Source: Barthelona sp. PCE
Taxonomy: Eukaryota
DNA length: 64,000 nucleotides
Direction of reading: 5' to 3'
Assembly (NCBI GenBank): GCA_040285745.1
Contig: JAUFOR010000001.1
Location: forward strand, 992,001 to 1,056,000
Position numbers and translations under genes: made by a program
The notes under the pieces: generated by a model
What the model saw: only the letters and a program-made list of their open reading frames with translations
Databases searched by the model: none
Told to the model about the DNA's origin: nothing
In this document: positions 45,884 through 59,268 of the stretch, piece by piece
How positions within the stretch are numbered: position 1 is the first letter of the stretch
How the letters are laid out: the number at the start of each line of letters is the position of its first letter

Positions 45884-46258
45884 ATCTTCTTTTTTTATGC
45901 TTTTAGAATGTTTATTAGTATGAACTATGGTAAATAACGCCAACACCAACAAAATTGAGTAAAAGAATCAAAACAAAAAAATATACTATATCTGTTTCAC
46001 TAAAAAAAGACAGCCTATTTGACATATGTGTTGTTCATGTTATGATTGCGATGTTATGTGTAATCAACTAAAATAAATCTTCTCCTTTCATGTTTCTAAT
46101 ATATGCTTGCAAATATGCTTCACATTTCTACAATCTTTTCAACAAAACTAAATATCATATTTATGCCAGAAGGACTATCACACATTCATGACTCGTAATA
46201 TATAAAAGAGAATGCATACCATTGAGATACATGCACTTAGAAAAAATGGTTCACAACG

Positions 46259-46397
46259 GTATTGAATTTCATCGCGTTGCCCCTGGCTGCCTGTTGATGT
46301 CTACTGAGAGTAAAGCAGATGAGAAAGAGGTGGAAAACGTAGATTTACGTTTCCTTTCACAAGTGTGACTTCACAGGGGCTGAGTTCTCTCGGATAC
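46259..46397 (+). ncRNA. Candidate structured ncRNA (GC-richer island just outside the left TIR)
   Basis: GCCCCTG/CAGGGGC stem enclosing a CTGC/GCAG arm and the hairpin GGAAAACGTA-GATT-TACGTTTCC; outer pairings GTATT/GATAC and GAATT/AGTTC; no ORF. Confidence 0.3.
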
Positions 46398-46684
46398 ATG
46401 CATGTTTACTGACAGATATCTAGTTGGATGGCGTGAATAAGTTCCTAAGCTCGAGGTCGGGTAATTGAGTTCCCACCCCATAAAAAATAGTAAAAAAGAG
46501 AAATCCGGAATGTACGATAAAGGACGTAATTCGGACAGCACATTCATGAGTCACAGATTCACTCTGCCATGAGTTCCGTCAACCACATGCTTCCATCATT
46601 CAACAAACATCATTCAACAGTTACTCCAGTCAAAAAATGATCATTTTTTTTTATATTAATCCTTTTTCTTTAGGGTTTGCCAAA

Positions 46685-46732
46685 TATAGATTATAGATTT
46701 ACTAATGTCGTAACATTGAATGATAGGGAACG
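46685..46732 (+). repeat. Left terminal inverted repeat
   Basis: TATAGATTATAGATTTACTAATGTCGTAACATTGAATGATAGGGAACG; subterminal ATATAGGTTTTG occurs twice at 46744-46768. Confidence 0.85.
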
Positions 46733-46948
46733 CTAATGTAAACATATAGGTTTTGAATATAGGTTTTGGATACAGATTAATCAGATTTGATTGCTTTATT
46801 CTTGGAGTTGCAGCAGTTGAAAAAAAGGTGTCTAAACATCATAAACATATATTTATTGTTGTGTTATCGTTATATATGGTAACACAGGTGTTCCTGGAAC
46901 GACACGAGCCATAAATAAACCATAATAATTATCGTCTCCAATTCGTTG

Positions 46949-49900
46949 TTAATTACTACTAATATTATTCTTCAATCTACTGAAAGCACTTTCAACAGCG
47001 TTGTTAGAGGGTGAGTAGAATTTGAAAGGAGTAAGGAAATTTTTAAAGCTCGATTGAAGATAACTTGGCAGTGCAGTGTAACCCCTAACTAAGGCTATAC
47101 GGATCATTTCCGAATTGACAAACTTAGAGGAACCTTCTTCTCCATCAAAAAACTTTCGAACACTATCATTATTTAAATAATCCAGAGCATCGTCAACCGT
47201 TCTTGCAGATTGCGGTTCTGAAGATGTCCTCTGTAATTGGCGCGGTAGTTCCATTACGTTAGCAGAGCTCGCTGCAGCAATTCTAGCTTTTCGCCGTTGT
47301 GATTCGGGAGATTTATAATACTCGGATGCATTGTCATATTGTTGACGATTATTCGGCTCCAAATCTAGTTGTAGTGGTTCTTCTGGCGGCATAATGGGAT
47401 CATTAGGTGAGTAAGCAAAGTGTTTGGAATCTTGTAGCACACATGCAATATAACCAACCAAACCTCTCACCTTTTCACCCCTGTTTTCGGCATAATAGAC
47501 ATAACTCAAAGCATACTGAGACCAATTTGTGAAGTGGGAGGTATCAAAACAACCTGTTGTTGTGTTGGGTTTCTGTTTATCAGGGTTCAATCGTGATCGA
47601 AGGAAATGGTAACACATAGTTACTTTGAGTCCGTTAAGAGTTTCTGTTGTCAAATCTTTATCAACATATTTGATGCTCAACTGGGAGAGATAATTAGCTG
47701 TAGCTGTATCACCAAAATCAAAACCACTTAACTTAACTGAATCTAAATCACACATCAAAAAAGCTACTAATGCTTGAGCTTGAATGAATTTCTCACTCAA
47801 ATATCGAACAACATACATCTCCAAAGCATTTGTGTAACGTAAAACAAAACTATTGTTGGCGAACCTCTCCTTCAAAAACGTTAAAACTACAAGCATTTGT
47901 GAAATCTCACAGTAAACATTCAACACGCTGTATCGAGCAGAGCAAGCAATACGCTGGATCAAAATAAATCTCTCCATAATTATCCTGTATATCTTACTAC
48001 ATTCCCAAAGATCCTCTCCTAGTTTGAACTCTTCTTTCAATTCATCGGGCCGAAAACACATAGTGAATACACGGAAGAAGTCTTCAGTTGCTTGCCAACG
48101 TACATTATCTAACTTATTATCATCATTTTCTAAAAATATCTTCCACAACTCAACATTGATCAACGATTGAACATATGCGAAGAACTTGAGTTCCACGTGT
48201 TCCTTCTGTATGATTGATGCCATGGTAATAATGGGAATATTGCAATGTATGTATGAGAATTTTTTGTATCTATCATACATCTCCTTCAGTCTATCTGAAT
48301 CTTCAATTTCAACACCTGCCTCGTTTCTGATCTTGTCATTAACCCTCAGACCCATATATTTCCTATCTTGTCCGAGCTCTTTGAGTACTTGAAGCTTGCG
48401 ATTCTCATACCCCATTAAAAAATCTTCACAAATCATAGGGTTGCTCTTCAACTCTGCATCTGAAGGCTCAATGACTTCACAATCAACCTTATTGTTCCAA
48501 CGATTGATAGGGTTTTTCTCGATGCTAATTCCTGCATTACGGAATGTCTTCAAAAGACAAATAGATTTAACTTTTTTTGAAGTAGTTTGAATCAATACTG
48601 GGAACACTTGCACCACCATTGAAATAGTTTAAGATCAACCGGAATTCAGCTAAAAGACTTTTTTGTCCGTTGGTAATCATTTCTCCTAACTCCTTCCAAT
48701 TCATAACGTTTAATAAATTGGACCAGCATCTTTCTGCATCCTCTAATACGAGGTTAAACGTCATCGACTTGGTGATCAAGTTGTGCGATATGTGTGCAAA
48801 AGCATGGAGAGTGCATAAACTGTTCATGATGGCGGGATAGCATTTCACACAACATAATTTCAGGATTACCACCATCAGTTCCAATGATGATCCTCACATT
48901 TTCTTCAATATATGATGATGCAAATGTTAATTCAATCTCTCTTTTAGCATCCAATTTGTACGTTACTTTCTCTGGAAATGTGGATATGGTATTTTCTACC
49001 ATTATTGGAGATTTTCCATGAAATAAGAAAGTAGGTAATGAATAAGTCTTCAAAATTCCTCTGTCAACTAAGAAATCAAGCAGCCAAATACCCAGATCAT
49101 ACGCTGTTTTTCCCGTAACTGAGGTTCGGTGAAAAGGAGGCTCACCATAACTTCTAACGCCATTAATCTTTTGGCATAGGACAACAAGGTTCTTATTTTT
49201 AAGCCAGTCAAGATATCTAATGACATCTATTGTCATAGTGTTGCTTATAAAAACTTCAGTTTTTTCATTAAAAAATTTCATGCTCTGGTGGAGGTACATT
49301 ATGTTCACCAAAATTTGGCACATCAAGCATGATGATGATAGACTCACGACCATCTAATCTTGAAGCATCATACTGCAAACATATTGGCAAGTCTTTTTCA
49401 ATAAAAATCTTTAACAACCATTCAGTGATAAATGCATGAAAATTAGTTATAATACGGAGGTATTTAAAGAATGCTCCTTCCACCCCCCGCTTGGTGGTGA
49501 ACTCATCCTTAATACTTTCTTTCGCGTTCCTAAGACTATTTGCTAATACTAGCTTAGAGAAGTATCTGGAAACATGTTTTGAATTGTCATTAATCACATT
49601 TTCATTGTTAATTCTAACAGACATCGCTACTATATTCCTATTTTCGCATGTAGAAATATTTGAAAGAAAGGGATTATAAAGAATATTCGGGATTTCGCAT
49701 TCAAACAACCTTTTGGCTACACTGTACTTCAAACTATACACCTTTAACCAAAACTTTGCACAAAAAAAACTTGAACTCTTGTGATACGATAAGGGTGGAT
49801 TGTAAATCGCATCTTTAACCCTTTTTGTGATGTTCTTACCTTCATATTTAATTATTCTGCCGTTATTTGCGCAATCTATCAAAGTTTGGTAATCCTTTTT

Positions 49901-50368
49901 TAGCTTTTCAGAATAAGGGTAATTTGGGTTTTTGACTATAGATGCACACAGCATTCTTAAACGATTTAGAAAAGGTAGCATGTTATATACAGCTTGCCCC
50001 GTTAATGGATCTATCAGCTTAAACAGCCAATTTTTGAGTGATATTGCATTTTTTTTGTATCTACCTACATCAGCACCATCCCTCAAAATGTTGTTAAAAA
50101 ATGAGTCTTTGTTGGCAATAGGGATCAGCCTGCAAGAGAAATCTTTATACGAACAGGGCAAATGTATTAAATTGTGAATATCAACCCTTTTCTTGAACTC
50201 TATACCTTGACTGTTATAAATCGCTTCCACAACAAGATCGTTAGTGCCTGGATCAGGTGCAGGGTTTTCATCGTTATATAGCGTAGGTTTTTGAATTTCA
50301 TATTCTTCTTCAACCATTAAGAAGTTATCCTCTCTTGATATGAGCAGTTCTGAGAGAGGGTATGCCAT
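46949..50368 (-). pseudogene. hAT-type DDE transposase, ~1138 aa once three +1 frameshifts are corrected (pseudogene or assembly error)
   Basis: Four consecutive overlapping minus-strand ORFs together give CLQYDASR (D1), IIIGTDGG (D2), HSPCF-AH (CxxH, restored across a shift), RWNN and SNNAVESAFSRLK (E and dimerisation region). Confidence 0.8.
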
Positions 50369-50666
50369 CTGTCAACTTTGTTTTTATACTCGTTGTTAGA
50401 TAGGGGTGATTAAAGTAATTCCAGTTTTTTTAGAAATCTGGACTGAAATCTATAAAATCAAATAAATTGAATGTTGGACATAGGTGTTTACTAATACATA
50501 TGGTCTCTTGCGCACAACTAGATTTCCACTAATTACGATATAGGTCCAATCATGGAAGTTCGAATGCCTACTTTTTCTTCCCCTTTTCAGCAATGCACAC
50601 ATGGATCATCGATTAAATGATGATGCAAAGTGGTTAATTGGCAAAAAGTTATTTTGTGACAAAAAG

Positions 50667-50739
50667 TACTCAGAGGGAGACTCGAACTCCCGACCGTTCG
50701 CTTATTAGACGAATGCTCTACCGACTGAGCTATCCAAGC
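50667..50739 (-). tRNA. tRNA-Ile (anticodon AAT)
   Basis: GCTTGGA-TA-GCTC-AGTCGGTA-GAGC-A-TTCGT-CTAATAA-GCGAA-CGGTC-GGGAG-TTCGAGT-CTCCC-TCTGAGT-A forms a full 73-nt cloverleaf with A and B boxes, followed by CTTTTT (Pol III terminator). Confidence 0.9.
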
Positions 50740-50945
50740 AATGCTCCATTTTTCAGTGAAGACGGAAATGTTTCAACAAAAAGTGTCAAGTTACATTCTG
50801 GTTATTCACAATTTAAGGCAACCCATTTCTCATCCATCTCACGTAATTAGGGGTTAAGTATACCGAAAACAGTGGTGTAATCAATTGGTAGAGACCCACA
50901 ATCAGTTAAAAATTATTAATTAGCTTTTTTTATTATTAAAATTTT

Positions 50946-51168
50946 TTTGTAGGAGATTAAATTTATTTCGGATTAGACACTTGTACGGGAGTTACGAGCT
51001 CCCTCGAGTGCTGTGCTTACACTGAGAATTGTTCTAGAGCCCTTTTTTTAAAATAAAAGGGGATAAAGAAATGATGTAAGTACTCACAGAGTACAAGAGG
51101 GAAGATTGCGTGCCTATTCCTCCTGTAGATTTACTCCTACGAAATAGCGTGTTATTCACAAGCGTGCC
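50946..51168 (+). ncRNA. Structured repeat copy A (candidate pseudoknotted RNA)
   Basis: Shares three blocks with copy B (18/19, 27/30 and 42/44 nt); long stem 50946-50966 / 51125-51143; extra hairpins lie between the blocks. Confidence 0.5.
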
Positions 51169-52062
51169 ATATGTCACAATTGTCTCAAAATTATACTTTA
51201 CACAGTCTATTCATATACATTTATAATATTTATAGATGTATATATAGCACTGGGTGATTTATATATTTATTTATTTAGACAGGATGAATGATCTACCTCC
51301 CATTTTTAGATCTCCATAAATCGTTACTTTGCCAAAAGCGAAAAAAAAAGTTTAATTATACATCATTTTCTTTTTATTTTTGGTGTAACTGTTCTTCAGA
51401 TATCTTCAGATACATGGACGTAAATCTTTACATTCCATATGAATTTCTATTATTGAGTTTAATTTCCTTTTCTCTTTTCTCCTTCATTTTGGATGGTTGT
51501 TTATTGTTTATTGTTTATAGTTTATTGTGTGAGTATAAAGATATTGTATTATTTGTTTTCAGTTCAATGAACATCTTTTAGGAAAGTCAGAAGATTCTTT
51601 TGTATGACTATGCATGTGTATATACCAACATTTTCCATTGGGCAAAGTAAATATTAAGAAAAGTAATGAAATTGAAAATTTATTGATAAAATGAAGCTTT
51701 GATCTAATCACTTTCTTCTTTACATTTCGCCTGAAGGTCATGTGTTGACCCACTTAAATGAAATATATTTGATAAGAAATGTGTCAATGTAAAAATGTTC
51801 GATGAATAATTTTATAAAATGAGATGACATTCCATCAAAATCATTTGTTTAAGTGAATAGGAATAGTGTTGGGTGAACATTATTCTTTGAAAGTAAGTTG
51901 TTGAAGATTGGTAAAAATCATTGAAGAAGAATTGTAAATAAGCGATCTATATGTAGATGTAAAGAAAGATTTGATTGTGCTTAACCAAGCTCTCACGAAA
52001 TCATTGATTACGTAAGAAATGGAGAAAATATTACCCCTAAGACTAAAAGTAAACACTCGAAG

Positions 52063-52225
52063 TTCGTAGGTAGTAAATTTACTTCGGAGTAAGGCACTTG
52101 TTCTGAGAATTGTTCTAAAGCTTAAAAGAAAAGAGAAAGAAATGAAGTGAGTACTCGCAGAGTACTTACTTCTCAGGTAGATTTACTTCTACGAAATAGC
52201 GTGTTATTCACAAACGTGCCTTTTT
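52063..52225 (+). ncRNA. Structured repeat copy B (candidate pseudoknotted RNA, ends in T5)
   Basis: Stem 52063-52082 / 52177-52195; 13-bp hairpin 52144-52172; AAGGCAC-TTGT (52091-52101) pairs with ACAA..GTGCCTT (52210-52222); ends in TTTTT. Confidence 0.55.
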
Positions 52226-52358
52226 GAATATTAATGAAGTATAAAACGATTGCATTTGTTTTAAAAATGATCCAATTTGAAGCTCCACTATTCTAAAGTG
52301 CAACTCCAAGAATAAACAATCATCTGGTAGAAAATTTTTTTTAAAATCAAAATTATTA

Positions 52359-52406
52359 CGTTCACTATCATTCAATGTTACAACATTAGTAAATCTATAA
52401 TCTATA
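52359..52406 (-). repeat. Right terminal inverted repeat
   Basis: Reverse complement of 46685-46732 with 2 mismatches. Confidence 0.85.
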
Positions 52407-52418
52407 ATGGTTCTTTGA

Positions 52419-54326
52419 TCACATTATATTGTAAAATATTTCAATTTCTGTGCAATCTGGACTAACTATTGATTGTAAAGGTAATGCTTCAAAAGTTTCA
52501 TCTATTGTGTTATAGTTTTTATCAAAAATCATATGCGACACTTCAATGGCAGAGTTCTTCACAGTTGAGCTCATTCTAACGATATGGAAAGGATCAACAG
52601 AAAATATTCGAGATATTGACTCAAAAAAGAAGTTTTCTCTAATTTTGGCACTATGAACGGCCCATAGTTCCTCATTCAAAAAGTTAAACACAGTTTCACC
52701 ATAGATAAACGATGTTTCACTGATAAAACAAGAAAAGAATGATCGGTGATCCGTCAAACCATGAGCATCAGTGTATTTTTCTATAACACTACGTTCTGTA
52801 TCATAAATGAGAATTATGAGATCATCATAGTTGTGTAATACGGCCATATGCGGATTATGTGGGTTAATAAAGACTTCAGATTTGTCAGTGATGAGATCCA
52901 CATAAATAAACTCTTTGCGCTCATCAATATCGCAAACTCCGACCCTATATCCAGCCTGAACCCACAAAAGAGAGCCATATAGTCGTAACAATGTCGGTTC
53001 AGATCCAAATGTGTGTATTTTCTCATCATCCACAAAAAGTTCATTGATGAAAGTCCATGCAACGATAGAACTATTAAAGGCGAACAAAGTTGAGGCAGAT
53101 AACGCTTGTGAACAGCTACAAACATGTAACACTACTCTATTCTGATTATAAACATAAAGACTTTTGTTTTCGTTCTGCACGAGAAAGAGGATGTTCTTCG
53201 CCTTTCTGTCGGGCTCTGCTGCCAGAAGTCTGTTGGGTGAGACGGCAGAAATATGAAGCGTGGAGTACCGTTTGAGAAAATCGCATATTAGAAAACAAGA
53301 AGGCAATTTTTGAACTACACTTCCATCTGCCATGTAATTAAGATACATACCATCAGAGATGTTACAAACAAACGAATTACAGGTCTCAAAGCGGAATTCA
53401 AAAATATCATTCTTAGTAATACTCTTTGTGAAATAAAATTGCTCTCTCTCACAATAAACCTTTTCCATAGCAATACTAGCACATTTTCCCACGAGATTTA
53501 GCTCTGAATCGACACATACAGTGTTGCTAAAACGGTTAAGATAGATTATCCCGTTGTGTGTGTATGCAACTTTGGGCATATAGTCGATTGGTAGTTTCTG
53601 CAGCATTTCTTCACTATAACATCCTGTAGCGCGGTCATATTCGACTTTGATTGTGGCATTTGTAAGGGCGTAATATCCAATAGGATTGGTTGAGTTGATG
53701 ATGGCAAAGTGTAGGTATCCGTCTTGTAGTAGCTCGCAGTCATGCTCCGTGAATGTCAGCTTCTCACTGTCTATATCAAAACGCATGTATGCCAGCACAT
53801 GTTTGAATGGTTTTCCGGGAATTGTTTTCGTGAGTGCAACTGGTATAACTTCGTTTACCATGAAAATCTGAGTTTCGCATCGATATAAACAATCAATAAC
53901 TTCAATTCTATCATTTTTAATATCCAAAAGACTAAAGGTCGAGGTACTCAGATCTTGAAACAAAACATGATGAAAACCCATTGGTAGATAACCCCTTGTC
54001 GGACATTTGGTGTTTTCATACTCACAAACTGCTGTGAATTTTGAGTTTTGAACAGTGTAATAGGTCACAATGTGACCATTACAAGAAATGTAAAGGTGTT
54101 GGTTGCAAAAAAGACATTTATAAACAGGAAACTCCGAAGAATGCACAACATCACCAGGGACGATTGTGGTTGTTGATATGGGAAGATTGTTATCCCTATA
54201 TTCAATAAAAAAATTCCCATTCCCAATGTCAGTAGTAAGATTATTACTTGACATATTATATTGGAAAAAAGAGCCAAAACAGTTGAAAATTAAAGAAGTA
54301 GGTTGAAGTAATAGTTGCAAATCCAT
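52419..54326 (-). CDS. Hypothetical beta-rich protein of the divergent ~650-aa family
   Basis: 635-aa ORF (alternative ATG at 54254); FINPHNPHMAVL...FISETSFIYGETVFNF pattern shared with the paralogs. Confidence 0.75.
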   Translation of the reverse strand: MDLQLLLQPTSLIFNCFGSFFQYNMSSNNLTTDIGNGNFFIEYRDNNLPISTTTIVPGDVVHSSEFPVYKCLFCNQHLYISCNGHIVTYYTVQNSKFTAVCEYENTKCPTRGYLPMGFHHVLFQDLSTSTFSLLDIKNDRIEVIDCLYRCETQIFMVNEVIPVALTKTIPGKPFKHVLAYMRFDIDSEKLTFTEHDCELLQDGYLHFAIINSTNPIGYYALTNATIKVEYDRATGCYSEEMLQKLPIDYMPKVAYTHNGIIYLNRFSNTVCVDSELNLVGKCASIAMEKVYCEREQFYFTKSITKNDIFEFRFETCNSFVCNISDGMYLNYMADGSVVQKLPSCFLICDFLKRYSTLHISAVSPNRLLAAEPDRKAKNILFLVQNENKSLYVYNQNRVVLHVCSCSQALSASTLFAFNSSIVAWTFINELFVDDEKIHTFGSEPTLLRLYGSLLWVQAGYRVGVCDIDERKEFIYVDLITDKSEVFINPHNPHMAVLHNYDDLIILIYDTERSVIEKYTDAHGLTDHRSFFSCFISETSFIYGETVFNFLNEELWAVHSAKIRENFFFESISRIFSVDPFHIVRMSSTVKNSAIEVSHMIFDKNYNTIDETFEALPLQSIVSPDCTEIEIFYNIM

Positions 54327-54430
54327 ATTTTCTTTTTTTTCATTACTTTTTGGGGTGATTAAGTTGAATCATTTACGGGGTTAATTTTTTCTGAGTAGTT
54401 TTTAGTTGTGTTAAAAGTTTTTGAGGTTTT

Positions 54431-55654
54431 TTATTCAAAATTTTTTAAATCAATGCGTTGTGATTTCAAAGGAGTAGATGAGTAAGGCCAAGCCTTTCTC
54501 TTCCGCAATGTGATGTGCATTTCGGCGTCACATGTGAAATATCTGGTTGTTTTACCGTCTCGAATTTTTTTTTTGCGTTTTGGTGTGATTTTAATCTGCA
54601 AAGGATTTTGTTTCATTTTGGGCTTGGGGCTTGGGTGCCAAGTTTCTGTAATTCTGAAAGGTATTCTTCTCTCTCCTTTCTCTACAGCAAATTTTTTGTA
54701 GCTGTGGTAAAGTTTTAAGTTAAATATTCCGGCATGAGATGATTTTTTTGCATAGTTTTCTGTGCTTCTAACAACATTTTCCCACAATCTAGCCTCTTTA
54801 TCACTGGTTGCTATGTTACGCGCAAGCGTTTTGATGGTTCTCAAATCTCTGTAGATTTCTGCATCATTTTGATCACCCTCAAAAGTGATTTTCACAGTGT
54901 GTTCTGCCTTGGACTGAACCATTCTACTTAGATATTTGGGGTATTGGCTCTGTTTCTTTTGCATCTCAGCTTCCCACATGGTGAGGGGAAACTCAATTGC
55001 GAAAAGTAGTTCGAGAATGCGAAGTATTTTGTCTTCTGGGAGTTTAGTATGGAATTGAATTAAATTGACACTGAAATTGCATTGCGCCACCGCATGAAGT
55101 ATAAGATTAATGTCATTTGGCGATACACAAACGAGTGGTTTTTTCTGTAGCTTTGATGATTTTTTTTTTGTATGTGGATTTCGTTTTCCAATTAGTTGTT
55201 TTTGCCTTTCAGGAGGAAATTTCTTGACACAGACGGTACAGATCGGATCATGAAGAGATTTTTTGTGAAGAAATACTGTTGTGGAAAGAGCATTTTTGCA
55301 TAGACAGCATTTCATTATATTCGGCTTATTTCTTGGTTTTAACTTAGTTTTGGGCTTATGCTTGGCTTTTGACTTCTGTTTGTACTTCTGTGGAGCTGAT
55401 ACAACTTCTACTGGATTTTGTTTTTCTTTTTTCTTTAAGACCAAATGGGTACCGTTGCACAATACAGAGAATAATTCCTCTATTTCAACAACGTTTAAGT
55501 GGCGAGATATGTTTTTAATAAGGTATTCTGCTTTTTCCAAGGTTATTTTTAACTTCTTAGCTATTGATGCCTTTTTTGATTGAAGCTGTTGCAAACCAAG
55601 ACCTCTATGTGCCATGACAACCGCAATAAATTTTTTTTTGTTAATTTCATACAT
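54431..55654 (-). CDS. Lys-rich protein with a Cys cluster and a possible degenerate ZZ + SANT module (SWI3/ADA2-like)
   Basis: CCLCKN...ICTVC followed by NDINLILHAVAQCNFSVNLIQFH...LLFAIEFP; the similarity is weak. Alternative ATG at 55615. Confidence 0.5.
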   Translation of the reverse strand: MYEINKKKFIAVVMAHRGLGLQQLQSKKASIAKKLKITLEKAEYLIKNISRHLNVVEIEELFSVLCNGTHLVLKKKEKQNPVEVVSAPQKYKQKSKAKHKPKTKLKPRNKPNIMKCCLCKNALSTTVFLHKKSLHDPICTVCVKKFPPERQKQLIGKRNPHTKKKSSKLQKKPLVCVSPNDINLILHAVAQCNFSVNLIQFHTKLPEDKILRILELLFAIEFPLTMWEAEMQKKQSQYPKYLSRMVQSKAEHTVKITFEGDQNDAEIYRDLRTIKTLARNIATSDKEARLWENVVRSTENYAKKSSHAGIFNLKLYHSYKKFAVEKGERRIPFRITETWHPSPKPKMKQNPLQIKITPKRKKKIRDGKTTRYFTCDAEMHITLRKRKAWPYSSTPLKSQRIDLKNFE

Positions 55655-55815
55655 AAGTGAGATGAAAAATGTGAAAGCAGGTCTTTTTTGCGCTTTTGGG
55701 ATTTACAAACTTTTTGTCAGTTTTAAAGGGTACACAAAACAATTTCACGTGTAGTAGTTAAGTAACGCTGGGTGTTTCAAATGATTCTTAATTTTCTTCC
55801 TTTTCTTGGGATTTT

Positions 55816-57789
55816 ATGCAGGTTTTTAATCGGAAATTGTTTATAGATGTGTGTGAACAGATAAGTACTTGCAAGCTAGTTGAGACTCAGCATTCATTAT
55901 TCACAACAATGACTGATGCATTCAAAGATACAAATTTCATGTTAGACGAGGGTATAATTGAAGCAATAGAAAACGCAGCAAATAGTGTAGTCGATCCAGA
56001 TGTTCTTGCAGAGTTTTTAAAAACATTTCTTCTCATTTTTGAAAGTTCTGTGGAGGAAAAGCAGGATATAGTTCCAACATTCGAGTTTGATACATATCCA
56101 TCCCATGAATTCGTGTTTGAGAAGTATAGGAATGCAAGGATTCCAGATAATGTTTTGATTGAGTTTGGTTTATGTAATGTTGCTCCGTTCCCTACTTCAT
56201 TGAACATGTCACAGTCTCTATGGACAGGTATAGCTATTCGTGCTTTCAACACAAGGCATGTTTTTTGTTGCTGTTATGCTCTGAAACTGTTGCTCTTCAC
56301 TGGTGTTGATTATTCAATTTTAGAAGAAAATGTGCTTTTTATGAACCGTCTCCTGGAGTTCTTTGAAAACGGCATGGCAGATTTTCTCGTGCCCTTCATT
56401 CTCGATTTTTTTCTTGTTTTGTTCAAGAGCAATGTCAAGAAGGACATTTTCATTAATATTTTTGTGTTTAATAAGGGTTTTGATGCGTTATTAAGATGTT
56501 ATAAGAGCGATAATCGACTTATGGGATCTAACTTTGTTCTCCAAAATTTCGAAATTCTTCACATCGTTATTACCCACAAAAATATGAGAGATATCTTCAT
56601 AATGAGTGACTTTTTCAGTGTTCTAGTGGAAGATGCGTCAATATTTCAGAAATTACAGTGCCGAATGAACGAGGATGAAGTGATAAAGATAACTCAAAAT
56701 CTAACGTTATATTTGAGATGCTTGAATGAAGTATACAACACAGAAGAAGTATTTTGCAGTTTACTTCGGATATGCAGTACGTGCACTCGATGTTTCTCTG
56801 AAGTGAAGTTTTACGAACTATACGCCGAAATGGTCAAGTATATTTCGTGTTTCAGTTCAACTTATCTCCAGGTTAAGATTGATTCAGAGGTTTTTTTAGG
56901 ATGTTTCTCTGTCATATTACATTTCCAAGTATTTCTTTTACGGTCACATATAGGAAGTTATGATAGTTTTATTTGTAATTTGTTGAAGATGATGAAATTG
57001 GCATTCGATATAGCAGACAGCGACACACAGTTACAATTAATTAATCTAATACTGCAATCTTTGGTTTATTGGGCACAGGATAACAAGAGGAGTGCAATGC
57101 TGGATTCCAGACATGAGGACCTGGTCTTCTTGTTTGTTGAATTGCTGTTGCACTGCGATTTTCAGACATTCATGACAGACAGAATGAGTGAAGCGCTCCT
57201 TCACTGTATATGTGTATGCGTGGCTTTGAACAATTTCCACATTCTTATCGGTTGTTTATTGCTGGGTATTGAAATTGCACGAAAGTTGCCGAATGCCTTG
57301 AAGCAGAAGTTTGCGTTTTTTTTCTCGCCTTCCTTCACCGTTTCCCGTATGGCGAAGCCTTTATTTGTCTTTCTGAAACGGGAAATGCTTGAATGTTATG
57401 TTGTCACGAATGAAGAAACGAAAGATTGCGAAGTTTTCTTTGTTGAATTTATCAATACAGAATTCTTCCACCCTCTCATCAAGGATCGATTCACTTTATT
57501 GTACAACAAACACTTTGGCAAGGAGAGTTGGCTTGAAGACGTAAACAATAGATCGATCGTTGATGTGCTTGATGAGTTCAAGGTTATGAGCAGATCGTTT
57601 AAGTTCATCACAGAGCAGAACAGCAGGCTAAGCATGGACTATGACCAGCTTAACAGGACATACAATACACTGAGTACAGATCACACTGATCTTTTGGATC
57701 TAATGGCAGATTTGTACTACGAGAATGAGGAGTTGAAACAGAGCCAGTTCGCTAGAGTTATGGATGTAGAAGATTCATTCATTAATTAA
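55816..57789 (+). CDS. Uso1/p115-like vesicle tether (ARM head, short coiled coil, C-terminal motif)
   Basis: NIFVFNKGFDALLRCYKSDNRLMGSNFVLQNFEIL resembles the p115 head segment (IVAFENAFERLLDII...GGIVVEDCL); HTDLLDLMADL resembles the p115 C-terminal QDDLLVLLAD. Confidence 0.6.
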   Translation: MQVFNRKLFIDVCEQISTCKLVETQHSLFTTMTDAFKDTNFMLDEGIIEAIENAANSVVDPDVLAEFLKTFLLIFESSVEEKQDIVPTFEFDTYPSHEFVFEKYRNARIPDNVLIEFGLCNVAPFPTSLNMSQSLWTGIAIRAFNTRHVFCCCYALKLLLFTGVDYSILEENVLFMNRLLEFFENGMADFLVPFILDFFLVLFKSNVKKDIFINIFVFNKGFDALLRCYKSDNRLMGSNFVLQNFEILHIVITHKNMRDIFIMSDFFSVLVEDASIFQKLQCRMNEDEVIKITQNLTLYLRCLNEVYNTEEVFCSLLRICSTCTRCFSEVKFYELYAEMVKYISCFSSTYLQVKIDSEVFLGCFSVILHFQVFLLRSHIGSYDSFICNLLKMMKLAFDIADSDTQLQLINLILQSLVYWAQDNKRSAMLDSRHEDLVFLFVELLLHCDFQTFMTDRMSEALLHCICVCVALNNFHILIGCLLLGIEIARKLPNALKQKFAFFFSPSFTVSRMAKPLFVFLKREMLECYVVTNEETKDCEVFFVEFINTEFFHPLIKDRFTLLYNKHFGKESWLEDVNNRSIVDVLDEFKVMSRSFKFITEQNSRLSMDYDQLNRTYNTLSTDHTDLLDLMADLYYENEELKQSQFARVMDVEDSFIN

Positions 57790-57798
57790 CTGAACTAA

Positions 57799-59268
57799 CT
57801 AAGTAAACGTATTGGTTTTTGGCGGTTTTGCCATTGATTTCTGAACCGGACGAATATTCCAGTTTAAGCAGGAAGTGAGGGAAGAGAACCAGTCGCGTAT
57901 CTGTGACTGCTTTGCAACACACGGAACGGGGTAAGGGGATGACAAAATGACGATTGAATCACCATTTTTCAGCTCATGAGTGTTGCGGCCGTCAAATGTG
58001 CAAAAGATAGAGGTAGAGGAATCTGAATCCACAATGAGCTCAATTTTGGAAGAAAGGGGCACGATAATAGGTCGTAGAGAAAGCATCTGACTGGCAATGG
58101 GTGTGATTAAAACAGAAGGAACGGCTGGATGTACGCAGCAACCGCCAGCACTTAGGCTGTACGCTGTTGATCCGGTTGCAGTTGCGATGAGCACGCCATC
58201 ACCAACGATTCTTGTAGCGGGAATACCATCTATCTTGAGAATCAAGTTCTCAATAAAATTACCGTTTGTGCTACATAAATGTTGAATTTCGAGAGAACGC
58301 TGTACAGCAACCTCGTTAAGCACAGTGAGAGTCTTTGGTTGTGCGGATACACTCTTTTGAAATATGATACATGAGAGACGATCGCGCAACAGTGTTAGAA
58401 AACGACCGTTAAGAACTGTGTTGAGCCCGTTGCTGAGAATATCTGTGCGTGTAAATGGCGTCAAGAATCCCAAAGAACCCATGTTTACGGGAACTACAGG
58501 GGGTACAGCTTTTCTAAACATGTTTACGGCATAAATAACCGTACCATCACCTCCTAAAGTCACTACAAAATCAATTGAGCTGGAACCACAGTAATGGAAC
58601 GCGTTGAAGTCATCAGGGTTGCTAGGTATTGGGAGCACAGCCTGGCGTTCCTCTGTAGACAGTACGTGTTCGATTTCGGCAATGACTGCGATTTCAAGAA
58701 GAACGTTTATGCCCCTCGATATGAGTTCCTGAACAACGTGGCATGTTAGTTCTGTCGATGCAATATCCTTTGGCTTCTTAATGATGAGGACGTTGCTCGG
58801 TGGTCTCTCCCACTCAATACGTTGAGTTCCCAGAGCGCTAATACCAACGTGTCTGATACCAGCAGATGTGGGGTCAATGGCAGTTGTAGTGGTTAGTGGA
58901 AGATCAGGCGTAATCATCGAGGATGGTTTTCGCACCAGTTTTATGCCAACTTTTGAAGCTGCACCTTCACGTTTTGGTGCTGGAGATGGTAGTACTGGAA
59001 GAGGCACACAGTCTTCAGGCATCGATACAGATTGAGTTGAAGCACTACGTCGAAGTTCGGTCAGAGATTGCTCAGAACCCATCGTGACGAGACGATGATG
59101 TCTGTTTCTCTTGGGTGCATGGTAGAATGCGGAACATTCATGACAATAACAACAGTTGCATTCGTTGCAGAAAATATTTGCATCAACAACTTTGCATTTA
59201 TCGCAGATTTGACGATCTGAAACAGTTTCTAATGCATCCAGAGATTGAGATTTCCCTATCTCCAACAT
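57799..59268 (-). CDS. NADK: NAD(+) kinase with an N-terminal B-box zinc finger
   Basis: TLGGDGTV, GSLGFLT, LNEV and GDGVLIATATGSTAYSLSAGG; N-terminal CDKC...CNECNCCYCHECSAFYH...HHRL. Confidence 0.9.
   Translation of the reverse strand: MLEIGKSQSLDALETVSDRQICDKCKVVDANIFCNECNCCYCHECSAFYHAPKRNRHHRLVTMGSEQSLTELRRSASTQSVSMPEDCVPLPVLPSPAPKREGAASKVGIKLVRKPSSMITPDLPLTTTTAIDPTSAGIRHVGISALGTQRIEWERPPSNVLIIKKPKDIASTELTCHVVQELISRGINVLLEIAVIAEIEHVLSTEERQAVLPIPSNPDDFNAFHYCGSSSIDFVVTLGGDGTVIYAVNMFRKAVPPVVPVNMGSLGFLTPFTRTDILSNGLNTVLNGRFLTLLRDRLSCIIFQKSVSAQPKTLTVLNEVAVQRSLEIQHLCSTNGNFIENLILKIDGIPATRIVGDGVLIATATGSTAYSLSAGGCCVHPAVPSVLITPIASQMLSLRPIIVPLSSKIELIVDSDSSTSIFCTFDGRNTHELKNGDSIVILSSPYPVPCVAKQSQIRDWFSSLTSCLNWNIRPVQKSMAKPPKTNTFT

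Follow-up and report, generated by a model that had tools for sequence, protein, structure and literature searches.

The stretch of DNA analysed here (the window) comprises 64,000 nucleotides of Barthelona sp. PCE (Eukaryota; positions 992,001 to 1,056,000 of the forward strand of contig JAUFOR010000001.1, GenBank assembly GCA_040285745.1), and all coordinates below count from its first letter. It is very compact eukaryotic DNA, with 33 open reading frames (ORFs) of at least 150 aa and intergenic gaps that are mostly shorter than 170 bp. A gap of about 2 kb (50369-52418) is exceptional in size for this window, and it holds a tRNA-Ile(AAT) gene and two copies, A and B, of an element that a first-pass annotation had described as a structured RNA-like repeat. 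This repeat pair is real, strand-biased, closed by a stem and of no described family, and a putative pair of small RNA genes is the most likely reading of it. The two copies lie 1.1 kb apart, and their alignment defines the following parts.

50946-51168, + strand: copy A, 223 nt (pairwise alignment and nhmmer)
52063-52220, + strand: copy B, 158 nt, the minimal version (pairwise alignment and nhmmer)
51169-52062, no strand assigned: A+T-rich spacer of 894 nt, without similarity to the flanks or to neighbouring proteins and without a protein-family match
50985-51020, + strand: first A-specific insertion, 36 nt (corrected alignment)
within 51041-51061, + strand: second A-specific insertion, about 10 nt (corrected alignment)
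51095-51113, + strand: third A-specific insertion, 19 nt (corrected alignment)
51022-51040 in A and 52103-52121 in B, + strand: conserved block 1 (CTGAGAATTGTTCTAGAGC), mostly unpaired (alignment)
51065-51094 in A and 52136-52165 in B, + strand: conserved block 2, with a GTACTC/GAGTAC hairpin (alignment and fold)
51125-51168 in A and 52177-52220 in B, + strand: conserved block 3, 44 nt (alignment)

All identity, pair and substitution figures rest on a gap-tolerant pairwise alignment made in Python; MAFFT alignments misplace the 36-nt insertion of A, and hence the 5′ arm, and pair counts based on them were not used. In the corrected alignment 138 of the 156 common columns are identical and 18 are substitutions (∼88% identity), and A consists of the core of B plus the three A-specific insertions, with similarity near-uniform elsewhere. 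The 5′ arms are homologous (TTTGTAGG-AGATTAAATTTATTTCGGA in A and TTCGTAGGTAG--TAAATTTACTTCGGA in B), and on the whole 5′ side A TTTGTAGG-AGATTAAATTTATTTCGGA-TTAGACACTTGT aligns with B TTCGTAGGTAG--TAAATTTACTTCGGAGTAAGGCACTTGT. The first-pass annotation had located the three conserved blocks correctly in both copies, whereas the different 5′ arms it reported result from a misplacement of the 36-nt insertion, and what it took for variable segments separating the blocks are really three indels in a core that is otherwise ∼88% identical. Homology begins exactly at the base of the closing stem (50946 in A, 52063 in B) and ends at GTGCC (51168 and 52220, respectively).

The repeat is genuine, as first proposed; the 44-nt block has two matches in the window and none in 100 shuffles. 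A profile built from both copies and run with nhmmer over the 64 kb recovers only A and B; its other matches are antisense palindromic echoes of these copies and five weak ones at chance level, with E values from 5.9 upwards. The sequences around the copies are unrelated. The upstream flanks have no word of at least 8 nt in common, the downstream flanks have in common only a displaced A+T-rich word, and the best matches of the spacer to either flank are a blastn alignment with an E value of 0.006 (76 nt, 66%) and a tblastn alignment with an E value of 0.21. A third copy at 46300-46375 was suggested by the 10-mer GTAGATTTAC (three matches against 0.08 expected) and by collinear short motifs, and is rejected on several counts: chance alone predicts about 44 common 10-mers, A and B having 363 10-mers between them, the alignment score with B is 112 against a background mean of 101 (standard deviation 6.4, maximum 118, n = 288), no tile near 46 kb stands out across the window, and nhmmer finds no copy there. 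An apparent fragment, GTTATTCACAA at 50801, is likewise at chance level.

The predicted folds of the two copies are built from the following segments.

50945-50966, + strand: 5′ arm of the closing stem in A, pairing with 51125-51144 (helix list of the minimum-energy fold)
51125-51144, + strand: 3′ arm of the closing stem in A (minimum-energy fold)
52063-52083, + strand: 5′ arm of the closing stem in B, pairing with 52176-52195 (minimum-energy fold)
52176-52195, + strand: 3′ arm of the closing stem in B (minimum-energy fold)
51145-51168 in A and 52197-52220 in B, + strand: conserved 24-nt 3′ tail outside the closing stem (alignment fold)
50978-51010, + strand: A-specific inserted hairpin, CACTTG..GGGAG..CTCCC..CGAGTG (-15.5 kcal/mol, z score -3.34, 1/200 shuffles as good)
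52144-52172, + strand: B-specific perfect 13-bp hairpin extending GTACTC/GAGTAC (-16.8 kcal/mol, z score -5.98, 0/200 shuffles as good)

On the + strand the fold of A has a z score of -3.44 and that of B -4.00, with 0/200 shuffles as good for either; the corresponding values for the - strand are -2.93 and -2.09. The consensus fold of the corrected alignment contains 45 pairs and is made up of the closing stem, a short hairpin based on UUCU/AGAA, the GUACUC/GAGUAC hairpin, and a weak G-U-rich hairpin at the 3′ end. The closing stem, initially put at ∼19 bp in both copies, is ∼20 bp in each predicted fold, has one bulge, and surrounds a junction that holds the two inner hairpins; the invariant unpaired joiners are UUCGGA, CACUUGU, CUGAGAAUUG and AAAGAAAUGA. 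The alignment fold energy is -27.4 on the + strand versus -20.3 on the - strand (z scores of -4.5 and -2.2), and none of 200 column shuffles (mean -13.4, standard deviation 3.1) reaches the + strand value. Among the 45 consensus pairs 36 are identical, seven have a change on one side that keeps the pair, none is broken and two are gapped. All seven kept-pair changes are G-U/G-C or G-U/A-U transitions whose pairing is valid on the + strand only, so that the stem is + strand specific, as the first-pass annotation had argued from its G:U pairs.

In an unbiased test of the same point we took the minimum-energy fold of each copy by itself and placed the 18 observed substitutions randomly at sites with the same base.

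A fold, + strand: 10 of 18 substitutions paired; 1 pair broken against 6.73 at random; P = 0.0006 (5000 trials)
B fold, + strand: 12 of 18 paired; 6 broken against 8.09; P = 0.16
A fold, - strand: 7 of 18 paired; 5 broken against 6.36; P = 0.30
B fold, - strand: 11 of 18 paired; 6 broken against 6.14; P = 0.58

The signal of selection for the + strand fold is thus real, but it is one-sided and comes from two sequences. The helices that only B possesses may explain why the result on the B fold is not significant. The closing stem also persists when DNA parameters are used (z scores of -2.2 and -3.0), and a single-stranded DNA form is a possible alternative, neither favored nor disfavored by these values.

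The largest indel is a self-contained hairpin, and of the three A-specific hairpins originally drawn only this one is clearly better than chance; the second is marginal (z score -1.86), and the third, GAGGGA/TTCCTC, is no better than chance (z score 0.16, 108/200 shuffles as good). Both copies pair the motif GAWGURA, but A does so with UUACA upstream and B with UUACUUC downstream. The 3′ tail can form the weak G-U-rich hairpin (z scores of -0.34 and -0.81) or pair back to RCACTTGT. In B, AAGGCAC (52091-52097) is perfectly complementary to GTGCCTT (52216-52222), whereas TAGACAC of A (50974-80), in the same role, has one mismatch (GACAC versus GUGCC); the a-b-a′-b′ pseudoknot of the first-pass annotation is therefore seen in B and is not kept in A, and a 7-nt complement such as the arm in B is not improbable by chance. 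A longer pairing of RCACUUGU with ACAA..GUGCC, with a 2-nt bulge, is drawable in both copies and competes with the 3′ hairpin; covariation speaks neither for nor against it.

Intron-like strings stand at one aligned place in both copies (GTGAGT...TACTTAC...CAGGTAG at 52146-52176 in B, and GTAAGT...pyrimidine tract...TGTAG at 51076-51128 in A). The string in B is a by-product of the perfect hairpin and no reading frame spans it. A coding role is rejected, given that the indels are not multiples of three and that the intron-like reading (GTAAGT / GTGAGT ... TAG) gives only seven codons before a common stop.

Two further features bear on how the copies could be expressed.

52221-52225, + strand: T5 run directly 3′ of B, a candidate RNA polymerase III terminator (sequence)
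50666-50739, - strand: tRNA-Ile(AAT) gene (Rfam covariance model, 64 bits)

The run of five T residues noted at the outset does follow copy B directly. The end of B reads C-TTTTT-G, and the same form is found 3′ of the tRNA-Ile gene on its own strand, so T5 is probably a stop that RNA polymerase III uses in this genome. An A+T-rich, TATA-like stretch lies at 52025-52033, 30-38 nt upstream of B, and is followed by CCCC at 52034-52037; in PMC5499648, TATA-like and CCC/GGG motifs precede RNA genes in the parasites studied. The tRNA-Ile gene, which is the only gene at the level of Rfam across the whole window, is divergent from copy A, and its 5′ end is 207 nt from the start of A. Three G-U pairs are present in its acceptor stem, as read from the Rfam alignment. 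Between it and copy A is a box-A-like string, TCAATTGGTAGAG at 50881-50893 on the + strand, that resembles the D-arm / box A of the tRNA-Ile gene (TCAGTCGGTAGAG). A tRNA-like promoter element in this interval was considered, and covariance models gave no match to one there.

The statement of the first-pass annotation that the element does not match spliceosomal small nuclear RNAs (snRNAs), signal recognition particle (SRP) RNA, RNase P or ribozymes is upheld by Rfam searches at E values up to 10. With Rfam 15 at the gathering threshold the whole window yields the tRNA only; at E values up to 10 on 4 kb there is no family match to the element, including snRNA, RNase P/MRP, SRP, ribozyme, Y and vault RNA; and on ∼200-270 nt around each copy the best score is 23.2 bits (ohsC) against a gathering score of 50. 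Exact-pattern scans of metagenome, viral and prokaryote genome contigs gave no matches, and sequence strings from blocks 1 and 3 were not found in literature full text.

We also read the motifs of small nucleolar RNAs (snoRNAs), Sm sites, CR-I/CR-V and telomere templates by eye against consensus sequences. Box H/ACA snoRNAs have the order hairpin, ANANNA, hairpin and ACA 3 nt from the 3′ end; here there is no ANANNA between the closing stem and the 3′ hairpin (GAAAUAGCG), and the ACA is found in the 3′ hairpin loop and is followed by eight conserved nt. Sm-class snRNAs carry an Sm site, RAU4-6GR, between two stem-loops, whereas B has CCUUUUUGA only at its extreme end and A has CCAUAUGU there, which leaves no common Sm site. 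In RNase P and MRP RNAs, CR-I and CR-V form the P4 pseudoknot inside the P1/P2 terminal stem; the GAAAG of block 2 resembles the start of CR-I but lacks a complementary 3′ partner, the conserved 3′ block lies outside the terminal stem, and there is no CR-I / CR-V P4 pairing. No telomere-type template is present within the homology. Box C/D snoRNAs have a C box (RUGAUGA) near the 5′ end and a D box (CUGA) near the 3′ end, joined by a terminal stem. The element has the reverse order, with CUGA (51022, 52103) upstream of the C-like AUGAUGU / AUGAAGU (51072, 52143) and no downstream CUGA within the homology. The C/D box consensus is also quoted in PMC5499648. Likenesses to U6, the MRP P3 domain, Y RNA and U5 loop 1 fall in A-only insertions or are non-collinear, and Rfam gives them no support; the conserved long introns of PMC6349667 are not related to the element.

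We favor, at a probability of roughly 0.45, the interpretation that A and B are two small structured RNA genes specific to the lineage, B probably being an RNA polymerase III unit. The copies would encode a small structured non-coding RNA on the + strand, either as two paralogous genes or as one gene beside a paralogue in decay. B is read as an RNA polymerase III gene because of the TATA-like stretch upstream, the homology that starts at the base of the stem and the C-TTTTT-G end; its product would be an RNA of ∼160-165 nt with a La-type U tail. A would be a paralogue with three helix-shaped expansions and no terminator, either read through or decaying and non-functional. The usual build of a protein-binding scaffold RNA is a terminal stem that encloses invariant unpaired joiners, and we infer such a role here only from that build; the invariant single-stranded segments would be free for protein contact or base pairing. 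In favor of small RNA genes are the restriction to two copies in 64 kb, the sharp ends of homology between unrelated flanks and an unrelated spacer, the pair-preserving and strand-specific substitutions, the alignment fold energy that is significant on the + strand only, and the position in a gap of ∼2 kb.

Several points weigh against that interpretation. The evidence base is two sequences at one locus, from which a family cannot be claimed. The consensus pairs include no two-sided change, and the 45-pair consensus was fitted to both copies, which biases it toward kept pairs; the substitution test is not significant on the fold of B; and the pseudoknot is not kept in A. Substitutions are spread nearly evenly (seven in 86 paired and 11 in 70 unpaired columns), so neutral decay of a duplicated repeat with three indels is still a possible history. 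Copy A is without a terminator, its first T run occurring only at 51303. The TATA-like stretches upstream of both copies carry little weight in DNA of 30% G+C, no A or B box is recognised in the copies by eye, no upstream motif of at least 8 nt is common to both, and the element matches no family in Rfam. Of the new structured RNA family that the first-pass annotation envisaged, the strand-specific keeping of pairs and the lack of an Rfam match stand, whereas the word family does not, given a single locus.

The pattern could alternatively reflect mobile-element remnants of the Ty1/Ty3 type that target the region upstream of tRNA genes, present either as two solo long terminal repeats (LTRs) or as a decayed non-autonomous element running from A through the 894 nt to B, with the structure incidental. 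We judge this unlikely, and nevertheless regard a decayed mobile repeat as a serious rival. As in the solo delta and sigma LTRs of Ty1 and Ty3, there are two direct copies with sharp ends and unrelated flanks upstream of a tRNA gene; a length of 160-225 bp is within the size range of LTRs; A begins with TG (50948) and ends with CA (51169); ATTTT directly before A and TTTTT directly after B agree at four of five positions; and the substitutions are spread almost evenly. B, however, has CG...CT in place of TG...CA, neither copy has a target-site duplication, the four-of-five agreement being low-complexity T, and there is no TGG-starting primer-binding site after A and no purine tract before B. 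Nor is there a gag or pol remnant, as no Pfam retroelement family is found at E values up to 1 in 14 spacer frames (of the 23 listed stop-to-stop frames of at least 25 aa) or in the three ORFs between 46949 and 50368; the three matches of that scan, all below threshold, are to two zinc-finger families and FUR. The window contains no further copy, and substitutions that keep pairs on one strand (P = 0.0006 on the A fold) are not expected of an LTR. Decay could have erased the missing LTR marks. Comparably unlikely is a pair without function, left neutrally by an old local duplication or formed by a palindrome-rich DNA element akin to a miniature inverted-repeat transposable element (MITE), the stem then being a DNA inverted repeat. 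Around the palindrome TAAATTTA the two stem arms repeat each other in both direct and inverted orientation, the stem forms with DNA parameters too, the test on the B fold is not significant, and other old repeats lie close by, such as the inverted pair 46685-46812 / 52299-52406. Yet a neutral tandem duplication of ∼1.1 kb predicts a spacer as similar as the copies, and the spacer has no similarity to either flank, which argues against that form. MITEs have terminal inverted repeats at their very ends, a target-site duplication and many copies; here the inverted repeat is subterminal, with 24 conserved nt past the 3′ arm, and no TA or other target-site duplication is seen at either of the two copies in 64 kb, and the MITE behavior that the first-pass annotation had set against its own proposal is not observed within the window. 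The G-U pairs, moreover, become A-C mismatches on the other strand, which means that an inverted repeat in double-stranded form loses pairing although the fold of the + strand persists.

A different possibility, which we consider improbable and less likely than either of the foregoing, is that the element is a highly diverged version of a known essential RNA, namely RNase MRP/P RNA, a spliceosomal snRNA, SRP RNA or telomerase RNA. Rfam models do miss several such RNAs in fast-evolving parasites: according to PMC5499648 only RNase P, U2, U3 and U6 were found in Nosema with Rfam 12, and the remainder were located by synteny. Like the element, those microsporidian RNAs are encoded by short genes lying in A+T-rich gaps of a very compact genome, escape Rfam and have TATA-like sequence upstream, but all the new ones in that study are assigned to U1, C/D or H/ACA, none of which the element fits. 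The isolation of the host lineage is in keeping with divergence, and the terminal stem, 3′ hairpin, U tail and size of ∼160 nt would be reminiscent of ciliate telomerase RNA. Set against this, nothing exceeds 23.2 bits even on ∼200 nt, no common Sm site, ordered C/D boxes, H box or terminal ACA, P4 pair or telomere template was recognised by eye, and an essential RNA encoded once would not be expected in two copies differing by entire helices. A long shot of similar improbability is that an isolated, fast-evolving lineage has here an RNA polymerase III scaffold RNA not described so far, for example a missing telomerase RNA or another essential ribonucleoprotein RNA, in which CUGAGAAUUGUUCUA, a 15-nt invariant unpaired block, would be the template or guide, the locus would be tRNA-linked, and the second copy would be a helix-expanded variant.

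Returning to the favored pair of small RNA genes, Y RNA, vault RNA and ciliate telomerase RNA are the closest in general layout. They resemble the element in a size of ∼160 nt, a long terminal stem pairing the 5′ end with a 3′-proximal segment, a junction whose unpaired segments are conserved, a short 3′ hairpin or tail and, in B only, T5. The element differs in its lack of an Rfam match and of A/B boxes, in copy A having no T run, and in showing no Ro-binding stem or telomere template recognisable by eye. In trypanosomatids the distance from the tRNA to the small RNA gene is roughly 100 nt; here it is 207 nt. In PMC4950102, small RNA genes of trypanosomatids have as their promoter a divergent tRNA gene lying upstream or a tRNA-like element, and the divergent tRNA gene upstream of A with a box-A-like string in between is reminiscent of that layout. 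We regard the parallel as a weak analogy: no tRNA-like element was detected, B has no tRNA partner, and the gene order of the window is not polycistronic.

As for the surroundings, the genes recognised in the window encode an isoleucyl-tRNA synthetase (IleRS), a UBP-type hydrolase, an STE-type kinase, Not1 and an NAD kinase, and many of its long ORFs have no Pfam family. The kinase has its best non-self matches in scattered eukaryotes, at 37-39% identity, and the ORF adjoining the element has no homologue other than itself among 5.8 billion proteins; on these grounds the host lineage appears to be isolated. A microsporidian affinity, considered in view of the compactness of the genome, gets no support from the kinase matches. 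The gap with the element falls inside a G+C trough (46000-58000; 0.33-0.38 versus 0.41-0.50 in the rest of the window) that includes coding genes. In some fungi such troughs mark centromeres.

An inverted repeat (46685-46812 on the + strand and 52299-52406 on the - strand) brackets 5.5 kb in which both copies and the tRNA-Ile gene lie together with three ORFs that have no Pfam family. Complementarity is 96% over its first 48 nt, and the whole repeat has 97 matching columns of 128 (E value 2e-17); the right arm begins 13 nt past the stop codon of the - strand ORF 52419-54326. The repeat could be the trace of an old inversion, the two ends of a large element, or a terminator region that is shared. 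Two - strand ORFs within this segment, 48754-49353 and 49268-50368, overlap by 86 nt, neither has a Pfam family, and both may be parts of a single gene that has a frameshift or an intron. A second long non-coding gap, at 45884-46948 (1,065 bp), has a G+C-richer core at ∼46270-46620 and a longest stop-to-stop frame of 60 aa; it has no Rfam match, and the fold of 46240-46500 is no better than that of shuffles (z score 0.13).

Were the element a decayed repeat it would be ordinary, and would only mark the tRNA-proximal gap as a site where repeats accumulate. If transcribed, it would count as a new small structured RNA, found in a compact genome with proteins of few recognisable relatives. Such genomes retain little DNA that is not essential, so that a structured RNA conserved in a gap as rare as this one of 2 kb probably has some function. 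It may take the place of an essential RNA that escapes the standard models in this lineage. The pairing of a minimal with a helix-expanded version would then show directly which helices are dispensable.

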